From the IMG/VR virus record IMGVR_UViG_2534681912_000004: 7,188 bases of DNA; one strand, given 5' to 3'. Positions within the stretch are counted from its first letter, which is position 1, and each line of letters begins with the position of its first letter. The notes under the pieces are model-generated. The model searched no databases, was not told where the DNA came from, and saw nothing but the letters and a program-made list of their open reading frames with translations. Shown in pieces: positions 897-7,188 of this stretch. The stretch comes from a virus. Lineage: Duplodnaviria; Heunggongvirae; Uroviricota; Caudoviricetes. A program made the translations under genes and the position numbers.

Positions 897-3800
897 TCAG
901 CTGATACTGATGCCTGCGGTGGCTTTCTTCATCACCACAACCAGCAAATCGCTGATACTTGCTGTGGGATACCAGTCATTTACCAGCCATGCTGACACCG
1001 AAAACTCCAGCGTCATGTGACCGTGACCGGCAGGCATATCAATAACGCCACTGTAAATCAGCGTATTATCCAGCGCGGTACGGTTATAAATTTCAGCACC
1101 GTTTTTCCGCACTATCAGACGGCATGAGGAGTAAATATCAGTATGCTCTCTCTCATGTTTAGCGCCGCTGAATGCCACCGCCGGAATAACAATCTGCCGG
1201 TCAAACGGCTGATCGTCATAAATCCTGACGGTAATGGTCCCTGATGGCCACCGTTCCGGTGCACGGGAGTCCCGGGGGAAAGCTTTGCCCACTGTTTTAA
1301 CGAGATCGCCTTCAATCTGGTTCGCGGACAGTTTTCCCAGAACCCGGCAGTTCTCGTTAATCGTGACGTTGTTGAGCGTCCCGGAGTTCGCATTCACGTT
1401 ACCGCTGATATCGGCATTTTTCGCCGTCAGCCGCCCGTCCGGTGTCAGGGAAAATGCCGGAGGATTACCGCCGCTGGTAATGGTGGGAGCCGTCAGATAT
1501 TTCAGGAACACTTCATTCATAAATATCTGATCGCCCTGACCAACAAACATCGGCTTTGTGTTGCCATTCGCAGGATTAACCATCGCAATCCTGTCCGCCG
1601 CCAGCAGCACCTGACTCTGCATGCCGTCAGGGGTGTTCTCAATACCGGCACCAATACCCGCGATATAAAGGCGTCCGTCCTGCATCTGCTGCAGCTTCAC
1701 AGCCCACATGCTGTTCAGGTTATTATTTGTATCAACCTGAACCTTCTGTATCTGCTGGATCGCTGCACTCTGGTCTTCCAGTTTCTTATTGACGGTCTGC
1801 GTGATTTCATTACTGACATCCGTGATGGACGTTCTGATTTCCGCCAGGTCAGGCGCAAGCTGACCGTTATCAATCTGCGTCCACAACTCCTGAGCCAGAT
1901 GGGTTTTCCCTATCTCTCCTTTGAAAAAATCCAGATAGCCGGATGCATCATCACTCGGCTGGCCAACAGCCTCCACGAATGCCGATTTGCCAACGGTGTT
2001 CACACTGCGGATGTAAAAATAATAATCATGGCCCGGCTTGATATTGATACTGGCAGCTATCCAGTACAGCGCCGTGCCAAGATAGCGGGCTGTGGTTTCA
2101 ACCTGCCTGATATCCGCAATCCGCTTTTCCGAGAACCAGAACTCAAACTGTACCGTCGGATCATAAACGGCAAGATACGGCGTGGCGGTTATCTGAAAAT
2201 AGCCCGGCGTCAGCTCAATCCGCGACGGCGCTGCCGGTGCGGCAATCCGGAACGATACCGATGCCGGATCGCCCTGCTGCCCCCAGGCATTTGCCGCCCG
2301 GACTGTCAGCCTGTAGTTTCCCAGCGCCAGTTGCGTGAAGCGGTATGTGGTTTCCGTCGTCCTGGCCGTGCTGACCAGCCGCTCACTGCCGTCATCCGCT
2401 GCCACGGTCAGACGAAGCATAAAGCTCACGCCCTTCACCACCTTCGGCGTGTCCCATCGCGCCAGCACCTGATATTCCCCGCTGTCTGCGGTGACTTCGG
2501 CGGTCAGGTGCTGCACCGCTGGCGGCGTGACACCATTCACCGTGCCGCTCTGGTCGCCGTCAAAGTGCGCCCCGTTATCCACGATGGCCTCTTTCTCCGG
2601 CACATGCTGCACGGCGGTGATGGCATACGTGCCGTCGTCGTTCTCACGGATACTCACGCAGCGGAACAGTCGCTGGCGCAGCGTCGGCAGCTTCAGCCCC
2701 CATACGCTGTATTCAGCAACACCGCCAGGAACACGGCTCACTTTTACCTTCACGCCGTCGGTGACGGACTGAACCTCCACGCTGACCGGACTCCCCTGCC
2801 CGTCAACCAGGCTTATCAGCGTGATGCCGGAGGATGGCAGCGTGATTTCACGGTCGAGCGTCAGCGTCCGCGTCTGGCTGTTCACCGCCAGCACCCCCCC
2901 GCCGATGCTGATACCCGCATAGTCATCATCACAGATTTCAATGACATCGCCCGGTACATGGCGAAGCCCTTCGGCACCCACGCTGAAGTCCACGGTCTGC
3001 GTTTCCAGCAGCTCCGTTTTAATCAGCCACAGCCCGGCGCGGTGTGCCTGCCCCCGGCTGGTACAGCCAAAGGCATCCATCTTCGTGACGTTACGACCGT
3101 AACGGGCAATGGCCTGCGTATCCTCAACAAGCTCTGTCGCCGTCTCCCAGCCGTTATCCGGGTCAATCCAGTTCACCTCAACGGCATTATGGCGGTCCTT
3201 CAGGGCGCTGAAGCTGTAGCGGAACGGCGCGCCATCATCCGGCATCACCACATTACTGCGGTTATAGGTCCACACCTTATCCGACGGTCGGTCCTGCACG
3301 AACGTCAGCGTCTGCCCGTTCCATACCGGCATACAGCGCATCGCCGAGCAGAAATCACTGAGCACATCCCACGCCTTGCGCTGTGTGGTCAGGTACGCAT
3401 TACAGGTGATGCGCGGCTCCGTGCCGCCAAAGCCGTCCGGCACTGACTGGTCGCAGTACTGGCCGATGACATACAGCGCCCATTTGTCCACATCCGCCGC
3501 ACCAAGACGTTTCCCCATGCCGTAGCGTGGATGGGTCAGCATATCCCACAGACACCAGGCCATGTTATTGCTGTATGCTGGCTTAAACGTTCCGTCCCAG
3601 ATACCGCTGTATTGCCGAGTCTGCGGGTTATAGTTCGACGGCACCTGCAGAATACGCCCGCGCAGATGATAATTACGGCTCACCTGCTGGCTGCCGAACT
3701 GCTCCGAATCCACCTGTACGCCGACCAGTGCCGTGTTCGGGTAGCACTGTTTCACATCGATGATTTCGGTGTATGACGACCAGAGCGTTTTGTTCTGCAG

Positions 3801-4376
3801 CTGGTCTGTGGTGCTGTCCGGCGTCATCCTGCGCATCCGGATATTGAACGGACGCGGCGGCAGGTCACCCACCACCACCGATGCCAGATACTGTGAGGTG
3901 GTTTTGCCTTTAATGGTGATGTCTTTTTCCGTCACCCAGCCACCATTACGCTGTATCTGAACCAGCAGGCGGACTTCCGACGGATTCCGGTCCCCCTTTG
4001 AGGTGGTTTCCACCAGTGCCTGCACACCGAAGGTAAAGCGCAGACGGTCGATGTTTGCCGACGTGATGGTCCGGGTAATCGGCGTGTCGTACTTCACTTC
4101 CGTACCCAGCACCGTCTCGGAGCCGGAGGATTCAAATCCCTCCGGCGGTGTCTGCTCCTGCTCACCGGCCCGGAACACCACCGTGACGCCGGATATATTG
4201 GTATTCCCCTCACTGTCCAGCACCGGCGTACTGTTCAGCAGCACGCTTTTTAATCCATCCACCGGACCTTCAACCGGCCCTTCGCTGATGGCATCAATCA
4301 CACTCAGCAGCTGCGTGGACTTCAGGTTGTCCTTCGCTTCGCGCGGGGTATGCCCCTTACTGCTGCCTTTACCCAT
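897..4376 (-). CDS. J: Tail tip central fibre / host specificity protein J (1159 aa)
   Basis: Single 3480-nt ORF. N-terminus [34 protein letters not shown]... and long internal stretches match lambda gpJ as I recall it (about 1132 aa). ATG at 4376 preceded by GGAG. Position between I and lom is syntenic with lambda. The C-terminal third differs in composition (see findings). Confidence 0.95.
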
Positions 4377-4398
4377 TCGTCATGCTCCATAAACGATA

Positions 4399-4418
4399 AA
4401 ACCGCCCGGAGGCGGTTT
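4399..4418 (-). other. Short GC-rich hairpin in the 60-nt I-J intergenic spacer, function unknown
   Basis: Inverted repeat aaaccgcc (4399-4406) / ggcggttt (4411-4418) with 4-nt loop. Not followed by a clean T-run on the minus strand, so not a classic terminator. Lies about 20 nt upstream of the J RBS. Confidence 0.3.
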
Positions 4419-4436
4419 CACATAAAACATTTTGCA

Positions 4437-5078
4437 TCAGCGACCAATCACCACAACCTGACCACCATCACCTTCATCTGCCGTGCTGATCTCCTGAGAA
4501 ACCACACGTGACCCCACGCGCATTTCACCGTACAGAACCGGCAGAACATTGCCCTGGGCAACCATGTTATCCAGTGAAGAAAAATAGGTGTTCTGTTTGC
4601 CGTTATCCGTTGTCTGTGTGCGGGGGGTTTTGGGTTTAGGGGCCAGCATCTGTGCAACACCGCCAAGCGTCATACTGGCACCGAGAGAAAACAGCAGATT
4701 ACTCGCCATAATTCCTACCCCCGGCATCCATATAGCAACCGCCATAACAGCCGCCCCCAGCACAGCCTGAAACACACCGCCACTTTTGGCTCCTGCCAGA
4801 CGCGGCACGATATGGATCACGGCACCATTTGCCAGCGGCTCATTAAGACGGGCAGACAATTCGGTTTCACCTGCATCACGCCCGGCAATGCGTACCTGGT
4901 ACCAGCCGTCGCTCAGTTTCTGACGAAATGCCGGGATCTGCATGGCCAGCGCCCGGATGGCTTCGGACCCCGTTTTCACTCGAAGGTCGATGCGGCGGCC
5001 AAATCGTTGTAAATCCCCGTAAAGGCAGATGCGTGCCATGCCCGGTGACGCCAGAGGGAGTGTGTGCGTCGCTGCCAT
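4437..5078 (-). CDS. I: Tail tip assembly protein I (213 aa): N-terminal ubiquitin-like domain plus hydrophobic segment
   Basis: ORF translation MAATHTLPLASPGMARICLYGDLQRFGRRIDLRVKTG... and C-terminus ...NTYFSSLDNMVAQGNVLPVLYGEMRVGSRVVSQEISTADEGDGGQVVVIGR match lambda gpI as I recall it. Start is 103 nt inside the 3' end of K in another frame, which I recall is also the lambda arrangement. RBS-like GAGAGAGG upstream, with a rather long spacer of about 11 nt. Confidence 0.9.
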   Translation of the reverse strand: MAATHTLPLASPGMARICLYGDLQRFGRRIDLRVKTGSEAIRALAMQIPAFRQKLSDGWYQVRIAGRDAGETELSARLNEPLANGAVIHIVPRLAGAKSGGVFQAVLGAAVMAVAIWMPGVGIMASNLLFSLGASMTLGGVAQMLAPKPKTPRTQTTDNGKQNTYFSSLDNMVAQGNVLPVLYGEMRVGSRVVSQEISTADEGDGGQVVVIGR

Positions 5079-5719
5079 TTGTCGGTGTACCTCTCTCGTT
5101 TGCTCAGTTGTTCAGGAATATGGTGCAGCAGCTCGCTGTCACCACAGTAAATGGCGGCATGATTCGGCACCGATGAACCAAAACAGCACAGCAGCACATC
5201 GCCCGGCTGCGCCGCTGACAACGGCACCTGATACAGCCCTGTGGCCTCCAGATTATCCAGATAGAGATTCTGACCGTTACGCCACCAGTCATCCCCGCGA
5301 TGAAAATCCGGCATCTCAATTCCCGCCAGATGGTAAGCGTCCCGGAACAGCGTGTAACAGTCCGTTACCCCGTGCTCAAAGCGCCGCCCGGTGAGATGCG
5401 GCACACAGCGGAATTTATGAATCGCCCCCCGGCAGACCAGCCACCACGGCAAATCACTCTGTACCTGCAGCCGCCGGTCGGCCTCACTCAGCCAGGGCAG
5501 ACCACCGGGGTGGCTGTGGACCAGCGCCACAATCTCTCCCTGCATTTCTGCACTCAGCCAGTCCTCCGGCGACATCCGGAAATACTCCTCCGGCTCACCG
5601 GAGATATTCACGCAGGGAAAATATCTTTCCTCCTCCGGCGTTCTCACCACGAAGCCGCACGACTCCGCTGGCGCACATCGCCGGGCGTGCGCCAGAATCG
5701 CTGATTCTGTCTCTGTCAT
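4976..5719 (-). CDS. K: Tail tip assembly protein K (JAMM/MPN metalloprotease-like domain plus NlpC/P60-like domain). Longest ORF is 247 aa; alternative internal start at 5575 would give 199 aa
   Basis: Translation contains an exact JAMM motif HSHPGGLPWLSEAD (H-x-H-x7-S-x2-D) and an NlpC/P60-like Cys-His region (GVTDCYTLF ... NHAAIYCGD ... LLHH). Position between L and I is syntenic with lambda. The start at 5719 lies 5 nt after the L stop but has no obvious SD. The internal ATG at 5575 has a strong GGAGGAG SD 9 nt upstream. Confidence 0.85.
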   Translation of the reverse strand: MTETESAILAHARRCAPAESCGFVVRTPEEERYFPCVNISGEPEEYFRMSPEDWLSAEMQGEIVALVHSHPGGLPWLSEADRRLQVQSDLPWWLVCRGAIHKFRCVPHLTGRRFEHGVTDCYTLFRDAYHLAGIEMPDFHRGDDWWRNGQNLYLDNLEATGLYQVPLSAAQPGDVLLCCFGSSVPNHAAIYCGDSELLHHIPEQLSKRERYTDKWQRRTHSLWRHRAWHASAFTGIYNDLAAASTFE

Positions 5720-5724
5720 GGGAT

Positions 5725-6423
5725 TTACTGCGAAAGTTTGTTAATGGAAAGGAAGCTGCCAAAGTTGCCGACATTATTGCGAAACTTACAGCCACTCAGG
5801 CATTTGCTGCATTTATCCTTCGTGATATCGGACGTCGGCTGGTCATATTCATCCGCGACCGCCGGACCGTGATAACCGCACTCATCGCCGCGATAGGTCC
5901 AGGTGCAGGTGTTGGCCAGCATGATACGTCCCGGAAAAACAGCGCCATCCGTTTCAGTCGGCGTGGACAGTACAAAAGAGGCACTGACCGCGCTCAGTTC
6001 GCTGCACTGCTCGATGCGCCAGCGGCTGATCACCTCCTGCTCCGGATCGGCTTCGCTGTTTCCGTTGACGAAGTTCACCGCATCCAGAAAGCGGGCGTAA
6101 ACCTTACGCCGGACCACCGTTCCGCCGACCAGACTCTGCAGATCTTCCGCCATCCCGGTGATCATGCCGTGCAGGTTAGAGACCGCCAGTGTCGGACGGG
6201 CAGCACTGCCCTTGCCGTTCATCTCAAATCCACTCCCCTGAATGGGATAGGCCTGATACTGCCGACTCTGCCAGGTGACAGACTCACCTTTTTCGTTCTG
6301 CTCATTACAGAAAAAGTAGCGATCCCCGCCTACCTCGGTCAGGTCGATTTCCCAGAGCACCACGCTGGCCGACTGCTCCGCACGAATGCATTCATTCAGC
6401 GTTTCCTGTTGTATGTCCTGCAT
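5725..6423 (-). CDS. L: Minor tail / tail tip protein L (232 aa) with C-terminal cysteine cluster
   Basis: Translation MQDIQQETLNECIRAEQSASVVLWEIDLTEVGG... through ...CSKCLSGCKFRNNVGNFGSFLSINKLSQ is near-identical to lambda gpL as I recall it. Its ATG overlaps the M stop (TGATG at 6425-6421). Confidence 0.95.
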   Translation of the reverse strand: MQDIQQETLNECIRAEQSASVVLWEIDLTEVGGDRYFFCNEQNEKGESVTWQSRQYQAYPIQGSGFEMNGKGSAARPTLAVSNLHGMITGMAEDLQSLVGGTVVRRKVYARFLDAVNFVNGNSEADPEQEVISRWRIEQCSELSAVSASFVLSTPTETDGAVFPGRIMLANTCTWTYRGDECGYHGPAVADEYDQPTSDITKDKCSKCLSGCKFRNNVGNFGSFLSINKLSQ

Positions 6424-6761
6424 CAGATCACCACTTCGTCAAACTGACACGAAAAATCGGTATAGGTGATATGTTCTGTCGCTGACCACGTTCGACACAC
6501 CACTCTGATTTTTCTGTTAATACCCGGCGGGCGCCAAAAAAAAGATTTATAGCCTTCATGCCGGGCTAAAAATTTTTCAAATGAATCACGTTCATTCGCC
6601 TCAACTTTGAAATCACAGGTGAAAACGCGCAGAGAATGATTAAGTCCATTTGGACTTCGTTGCTCATAACCATCGCCAAATCTTACAGTTTTTATCGATG
6701 GTTTATTTTCTGTTTTCATTCCATCCTCTGGTAACCAGTGAAATTCTTCCGTATTAGCCAC
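6423..6761 (-). CDS. M: Minor tail protein M (112 aa, GTG start)
   Basis: ORF with conserved core TVRFGDGYEQRSPNGLN...KSFFWRPP...FDEVVI resembling lambda gpM (KVRFGDGYSQRAPAGLN...KSFLWTPP...FEQVVN, from memory). The N-terminal F-x-W...PEDGM aligns with lambda F-R-W...KPGM, supporting the GTG at 6761. Alternative ATG at 6719 (Met15). Stop overlaps the L start. Confidence 0.85.
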   Translation of the reverse strand: MANTEEFHWLPEDGMKTENKPSIKTVRFGDGYEQRSPNGLNHSLRVFTCDFKVEANERDSFEKFLARHEGYKSFFWRPPGINRKIRVVCRTWSATEHITYTDFSCQFDEVVI

Positions 6762-7095
6762 TTAACATTCCCCCATCACGTCGCATATTTAACAGATTGC
6801 CCTGCACCCGCTGATCAACCATCCCCATAAGTGCTTTTATTGCCTGAGGGCCAATCTCTCCATTCTGGCCGTCATTTTGAATAGTGATTTGGTATACAGG
6901 GGCATAGGTAATATCTCCGCCTCCATTACCACTTTTACTATTAACAGCTCTGACACCAAGAGAACCATCGGAAGTTCGTGTTAATGGCATAATGGCTTCC
7001 GGACCAGCCTCACCAAAAACACCAGCCCCTCTTGCAAAAGCAAAAAATTGCGGGGAATCATAAATTGAACCGCCCCGGGTTTCCTGGAGAGTATT
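6754..7095 (-). CDS. H: Tail tape measure protein H, C-terminal segment (114 codons open; frame blocked upstream by in-frame TAA at 7098-7096 and TGA at 7110-7108)
   Basis: Translation ...GGSIYDSPQFFAFARGAGVFGEAGPEAIMPLTRTSDGSLGVRAVN...ITIQNDGQNGEIGPQAIKALMGMVDQRVQGNLLNMRRDGGMLSG resembles the C-terminal end of lambda gpH (...VVINNDGTNGQIGPAALKAV...MRDGGLFSGGGR, from memory) and the widespread FxxGG...GExGPEAI tape-measure motif. The ORF track reports only the last 78 aa from an internal ATG at 6990. Stop TAA at 6756-6754 overlaps the M start region by 8 nt. Confidence 0.7.
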   Translation of the reverse strand, partial: NTLQETRGGSIYDSPQFFAFARGAGVFGEAGPEAIMPLTRTSDGSLGVRAVNSKSGNGGGDITYAPVYQITIQNDGQNGEIGPQAIKALMGMVDQRVQGNLLNMRRDGGMLSG

Positions 7096-7188
7096 TTATC
7101 TGTGAACTCAGGCTGCCAGATCATCGTTTCCGATGGAAGCATAATAAGCTTTTTCTGCTTCTGCCGGAGGAGTATGGCCCAGCCTTTC

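Follow-up and report, generated by a model that had tools for sequence, protein, structure and literature searches.

A base-composition step at the M/L gene boundary of a lambdoid prophage very probably marks an old recombination joint

The base composition of the 7,188 nt stretch of phage DNA analysed here (hereafter the window) changes abruptly at the boundary between the minor tail protein genes M and L, and very probably marks the right-hand border left by an old recombination event that gave rise to a hybrid lambdoid prophage. To its left is a lambda-type tail-tip region, recovered as a single blastn block on the minus strand (positions 1880–6445; approximately 830 codons from the start of J, all of I, K and L, and the final 22 nt of M), and this block forms a GC-rich island of 4.6 kb embedded in a prophage of lower GC content. 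To its right are M and what remains of the tape-measure gene H, both of them AT-rich. The junction zone, across which GC3 and DNA identity to lambda-type phages both change, is placed at 6424–6465 by sliding identity, alignments and change-point support.

All of the genes called in the window are on the minus strand. From right to left there is the right end of an IS3-family element (7066–7188), a remnant of H (6754–7065; the last 103 codons and the stop codon, collinear with intact tape-measure genes), M (6423–6761; 112 aa, with a GTG start), L (5725–6423; 232 aa), K (4976–5719), I (4437–5078), J (897–4376) and a lom-like gene (230–829). The H remnant, M and L thus follow in that order, with the H stop codon overlapped by the start of M, and the sequence TGATG at 6425–6421 forms the overlap between the M stop codon and the L start codon. 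The M product matches Pfam family PF05939 (109.8 bits against a cut-off of 39, covering profile positions 1–108 of 108) and is predicted to be the distal ring protein, in the form of an AT-rich allele of a Rac-type prophage lineage. The L product matches PF05100 (324.6 bits against a cut-off of 25), and its C-terminal cysteine motifs CTWTYRGDECGY and CSKCLSGC are the same as those of lambda L. In lambda, gpL has a 4Fe-4S domain (PMC11101478), and the window's L is likewise predicted to be a hub protein with such a domain. K begins 5 nt after L (window 4976–5719, compared with positions 5129–5876 of the record L004) and is a 247 aa open reading frame with JAB and NlpC/P60 domains in Pfam; the lambda reference annotates K as only 199 aa, and the homologous 5′ region of lambda K has a 1 nt gap relative to all five other aligned sequences (at about alignment column 1549).

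There are several aspects to the composition step. First, maximum-likelihood segmentation divides the window into parts with GC fractions of 0.515 (1–2201), 0.588 (2202–6384) and 0.442 (6385–7188), such that GC content falls from 58.8% in the middle part to about 43–44% in 6385–7065; in 200 nt windows it is 0.55–0.665 across 2200–6300 and 0.39–0.46 across 6400–7100. Second, the main change point is supported by a log-likelihood ratio of 21.1 nats, with positions 6368–6451 falling within 2 nats of the optimum; this ratio was reached in none of 2000 mononucleotide shuffles and none of 2000 shuffles of 60 nt blocks (the largest was 16.2). Third, the difference is concentrated at third codon positions: L (GC 55.9%, GC3 0.674), K (59.3%, 0.673) and J (56.9%, 0.681) are closely similar, while M is 41.0% GC with a GC3 of 0.345, so that GC3 differs two-fold between L and M but GC1 and GC2 differ little. 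Third positions are G or C in 157 of 233 codons of L versus 72 of 215 in M and the H remnant combined (Fisher p = 8e-13), and a change point estimated from GC3 alone has support at 6432–6543. Finally, lambda itself, used as a control, has no such step, its H, M and L genes being 0.56–0.59 GC with a GC3 of about 0.65. Taken together, these estimates put the step no further than about 40 nt from the M/L boundary and just within the 3′ terminus of M. The initial annotation had described a GC break at the L/M junction coinciding with the TGATG at about 6423, and the segmentation, GC3 test, shuffles and GC profile all bear this out. Its figure of 58–70% for the GC-rich side is slightly high given the mean of 58.8%, although that side is indeed GC-rich, and its range for the AT-rich side (6423–7100) is too long, as homology to H ends at 7065 and 7066–7188 is the end of the IS3-family element.

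A step in homology accompanies the step in composition. By blastn the window and lambda share one 4.6 kb block (1880–6445) with 91.9% identity, and there is no match over M and H. In 50 nt windows identity to lambda is 30–60% upstream of about 6465 and 82–98% downstream of 6440. At the protein level L is 93% identical to lambda L, whereas M is 42% identical to lambda M over 105 aa and the C-terminal 51 aa of H are 39% identical to the C terminus of lambda H, in keeping with the earlier observation that M is the more diverged of the two minor tail proteins. L itself contains a short hypervariable patch within an otherwise conserved gene (6190–6265, approximately codons 53–78), where identity in 50 nt windows is 68–78% to phage 689R7 and 72% to lambda, and phages share alleles of this patch as a patchwork.

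The two flanks of the joint also differ in the company they keep among phages. A separate blastn search with L returns 175 phage records, among them lambda and its relatives (identity of about 92.6%), whereas megablast with 6424–7065 recovers just 10 records, all with at least 99% identity and consisting of induced E. coli prophages (the vB_EcoS-...R.. series) and Salmonella phage SPF_0923. A sensitive blastn search against phages reveals no further DNA relative of the M part; the M/H stretch yields only weak matches (66–82%), confined to the region of the H C-terminal motif. By protein comparison the nearest other phage M lineages are 49–51% identical (those of Stx phages and 813R8). Many of the phage records that match the window have matches ending at about 6445. 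More directly, phages 689R7, 606R9, 611R4 and 683R6 carry an M/H stretch 99.4% identical to that of the window next to an L gene that is just 94.4–94.7% identical, the 689R7 L departing from the window's about 80 nt into the gene. Reciprocally, PhiR49_1 has lambda-type H and M genes beside the window's L allele; its L is 98.6% identical over the whole gene, being lambda-like for the first ~90 nt and window-like from about 6336 apart from a single 2 nt patch. These pairings show that each flank of the joint occurs with other partners. The initial annotation had proposed separate BLASTN searches of the two segments, and had named a shared best-hit phage at similar identity as grounds for refutation. 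Taken literally this applies, the best four phages being the same for both segments (99.3–99.8%), but as these belong to the same hybrid prophage family their sharing does not refute mosaicism, and it is the partner swaps that are informative.

The joint is widespread in bacterial genomes. Among 5,426 complete E. coli genomes the M/H stretch is present in 721 (with at least 99% identity in 670), and a 300 nt probe spanning the joint is matched contiguously in 718. The L half of this probe is matched in 4,155 genomes, and 3,421 records (80–90% identity) match the L half alone, ending at about 6445 in those sampled. The same joint is found in E. ruysiae and S. flexneri. Being common to 718 genomes and to other species, it represents an old and successful architecture rather than a private event.

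How the two parental sequences came to be joined at this particular place bears on the junction zone itself, which contains a conserved M 3′ end (AGTTTGA..A.GTGGTGA.CTGA) with a GGTG-rich stretch just upstream of TGATG that is likely to be the ribosome-binding site of L. We compared five M lineages (those of the window, lambda, Stx1_EH1992, 813R8 and 569R4), which are 45–67% identical to each other in pairwise nucleotide comparisons. All five meet L at the same boundary, their L genes are 74–94% identical, and only the window's M and, more weakly, that of 813R8 (GC3 of 0.474) are AT-rich. The 42 nt around the boundary are 69–88% identical among the five despite the divergence of the M genes otherwise, and this, together with the ending of matches from about 3,400 genomes at about 6445, 22 nt within M, suggests a homologous crossover in the last ~25 nt of M and the start of L. 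That mosaics can form by way of short conserved flanks is accepted (PMC2327257). However, we regard this as possible but on balance unlikely, the alternative being one illegitimate event followed by selection. First, 718 of the 721 carriers of the window's M have the same joint, which a single old event fits equally well. Second, the conserved patch overlaps both the likely ribosome-binding site of L and the C terminus of M (F-D/E-x-V-V), such that its conservation may be functional. Third, 569R4 has a 10 nt insertion at the boundary and yet switches there all the same. Fourth, there is no Chi site in the window that might have served as a recombination hot-spot. Because the conserved 3′ patch of M could reflect functional constraint, the breakpoint is fixed to about 40 nt at best. 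A broader proposal, that the M 3′ end and L start constitute a linker of ~25–40 nt in repeated use and that the L-K-I-J(N) hub is a promiscuous cassette, seems to us a little more doubtful still. If true, it would mean that the hub block has been homogenised over at least five otherwise unrelated E. coli prophage tail-shaft lineages, and that the M ring is a universal adaptor that can fit any shaft to a lambda-type hub.

The window contains no known RNA families, and promoter-like sites are not enriched in 6200–7188 (1 versus 1.4 expected). The same region has four terminator-like sites, each a hairpin with a T-run, versus 0.8 expected from shuffles; three of the four are on the plus strand, antisense to the genes, and they may mirror the T-rich composition.

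The right-hand end of the AT-rich stretch has a different explanation. Homology between the H frame and intact tape-measure genes ceases at 7065, and the frame has stop codons upstream of about 7092; as far as 7065 the remnant is 99–100% identical to, and collinear with, the intact H genes of E. coli TUM14771 and phage 666R9. Positions 7066–7188 (50.4% GC) match without difference the end of an element that is annotated in E. coli SW070919 as an IS3-family transposase with a programmed frameshift, and include the transposase C terminus, a stop codon at 7108–7110 and the terminal ...GGTTCA at 7066; the assignment to the IS3 family relies on the 123 nt of the element within the window. The same 123 nt are 97% identical to a sequence found twice in many Stx2a phage records. 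The element has cut H to its last 103 codons, which indicates that the prophage in the source genome is defective and accounts for the many database matches that end at 7065. In SW070919 (record L001, 14068–15775) the same IS adjoins another IS fragment and an H remnant that is longer than the window's, and head, lysis and replication genes are absent between H and a recE-like gene. Position 7065 was also considered as a second mosaic border, that of a small cassette, and was rejected upon recognition of the IS end there.

Intact relatives show how far the AT-rich side extends. In these it makes up most of the morphogenesis region, a module of roughly 46% GC: low GC continues for about 15 kb, beginning at M and reaching the terminase genes, with GC3 values of 0.29–0.52 for every gene from M to terS and 0.54 beyond terS, while those of L, K, I and J are 0.57–0.67. 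Upstream of M both TUM14771 and 666R9 have a 1077 aa tape-measure gene, ydaY and a Big2-type tube gene, and further carry a P22-like coat gene and portal and terminase genes. The prophage in the relatives adjoins ttcA and carries intR, xisR, rcbA, ralR and recT, as well as ydaY and ynaK, with trkG adjacent. These Rac-type features are seen in the closest relatives, SW070919 (99.7% identity) and TUM14771, whereas the window ends in the IS and is without those genes; its assignment as a probable Rac-type prophage is thus made through near-identical relatives, and its attachment site would lie beyond the window. In a species-level genome scan based on peptide patterns, and thus non-exhaustive, M is found with at least 97% identity only in Shigella and E. 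ruysiae, the next relatives being 33–44% identical and located in Providencia, Morganella, Pantoea and others. The scan found no donor of the AT-rich module outside Escherichia and Shigella.

These relatives bear on the size of the AT-rich piece. The initial annotation had regarded M and the H 3′ end as an import from a more AT-rich lineage, and a related reading would have a small AT-rich cassette of ~640 bp (M and the 3′ end of H) newly inserted into a lambda-like tail operon. In the window the AT-rich stretch is indeed just 6385–7065, and matches do end at 7065. We nonetheless consider such an insertion very improbable. First, 7065 is the end point of an IS insertion or deletion and not a mosaic border. 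Second, the intact relatives maintain both the lineage and the low GC through a 3234 nt H gene and ~12 kb beyond. Third, a joint common to 718 genomes and two other species does not fit a new insertion. Likewise, among the records examined there is none in which the M/H 3′ stretch is flanked upstream by a lambda-type, GC-rich H. What stands of the earlier proposal is that the two sides are of different lineages; what does not is the small size of the AT-rich piece.

An account without recombination, which would explain the step by faster evolution of M and H together with a drift towards AT, or by expression-related codon use, is highly improbable. M is small and less constrained, and across phages L is the more conserved of the two, as such an account would have it. 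However, the difference is at silent sites: four-fold synonymous sites are the same as in lambda at a frequency of 0.35 in M (n=20, near saturation) and 0.79 in L (n=102), which argues for different ages of the two sides rather than different constraint. The wide gap in GC3 beside small gaps in GC1 and GC2, the lack of a step in lambda, and the presence of both flanks with other partners also count against it. The different origins proposed earlier for M/H and for L-K-I-J are thus supported by the homology step, the four-fold sites and the partner swaps alike. Finally, the chance that the joint is an assembly chimera or a by-product of the nearby IS is negligible, for although the IS3-family end is only 640 bp away, an identical joint recurs in 718 complete genomes, induced phages and two other species, does not need the IS, and leaves the M and L reading frames intact.

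Returning to the hybrid prophage that we favour, its lambda-like block has a second, left-hand border within J at about 1880–2200. GC content drops there from 0.588 to 0.515 (at about 2201), and the 91.9% identity block shared with lambda ends at 1880. Beyond it, similarity to lambda is reduced to patches of 76–83% identity over the C-terminal third of J and the lom-like gene. This break in J is probably a host-range domain swap. Downstream of lom in the relatives (L003 5700–9403; L001 2123–6165) are low-GC (~0.44) side-tail-fibre genes, which differ from one of these genomes to another and form a further variable module at the opposite end of the GC-rich block.

We propose that a lambda-type parent gave the hub block of L, K, I and the N-terminal two-thirds of J (~59% GC, GC3 ~0.67), and that a Rac-type Escherichia parent gave M and H and, in the intact copies, all of the tail-shaft, head and terminase genes (42–51% GC). 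The joint would have been produced by recombination between co-resident lambdoid phages or prophages, somewhere in the last 20–40 nt of M. The difference in base composition between the parental lineages is what makes it visible as a GC step. Afterwards the L-K-I-J DNA may have exchanged with other lambdoid prophages by homologous or homeologous recombination, as has been shown for lambda and defective prophages (PMC3945230; PMC2327257). Such continuing exchange would keep L close to lambda, and M and H may have stayed distinct because they had no close recombination partner. The position of the joint may also make structural sense. In lambda a hexameric gpM ring lies beneath the tube, and the hub below it is made of three gpL and three gpJ (PMC11101478), such that a cut between M and L would separate neither the ring from its own tube and tape measure nor the hub genes from each other.

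Several implications follow from this arrangement. A lambda-type hub (L, K, I and J) is able to function with shaft components (tube, tape measure and M ring) of quite different lineage, and the M/L boundary is a natural cut point that could be useful in the design of hybrid tails or host-range swaps. For prophage annotation, the window is best described as part of a defective, probably Rac-type prophage with its tape-measure gene cut by an IS. There is also a caution for the reading of GC steps in prophages, as such steps need not signal recent import: the odd composition is here that of the resident lineage.

Comparison with lambda shows both what is shared and what is not. The gene order M-L-K-I-J is the same, as is the 1 nt overlap of the M stop and L start codons; the two M products share a Pfam family, as do the two L products, and the DNA of L, K, I and the N-terminal part of J is about 92% identical. 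The differences are in the AT-rich and diverged M, the C terminus of H, the C-terminal third of J and the lom gene. With respect to the Rac prophage, the near-identical relatives of the window sit at the ttcA locus with Rac genes; the K-12 copy of Rac is not known to carry these tail-tip genes. Host-range swaps are known in the C-terminal part of J, and the break in the window's J bounds the other side of the lambda-like block, but it lies inside a gene at a domain boundary whereas the M/L joint is at a gene boundary.

A literature search found treatments of lambdoid mosaicism in general and no paper describing the M/L joint of the window. Mosaicism of this kind, the genes concerned and the sequence, which occurs in hundreds of annotated genomes, are all already known, and the joint is an ordinary, textbook-type example of lambdoid mosaicism (see PMC2327257, PMC3945230 and PMC9836094 for background). 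As in other lambdoid phages, identity switches abruptly at a gene boundary, from about 92% to unalignable within tens of bases, the flanks occur with different partners, and a functional module has been exchanged. There is no difference in kind between this and other lambdoid mosaics; what sets it apart is that the parents are strongly different in base composition and that the joint has become fixed in a very common family.
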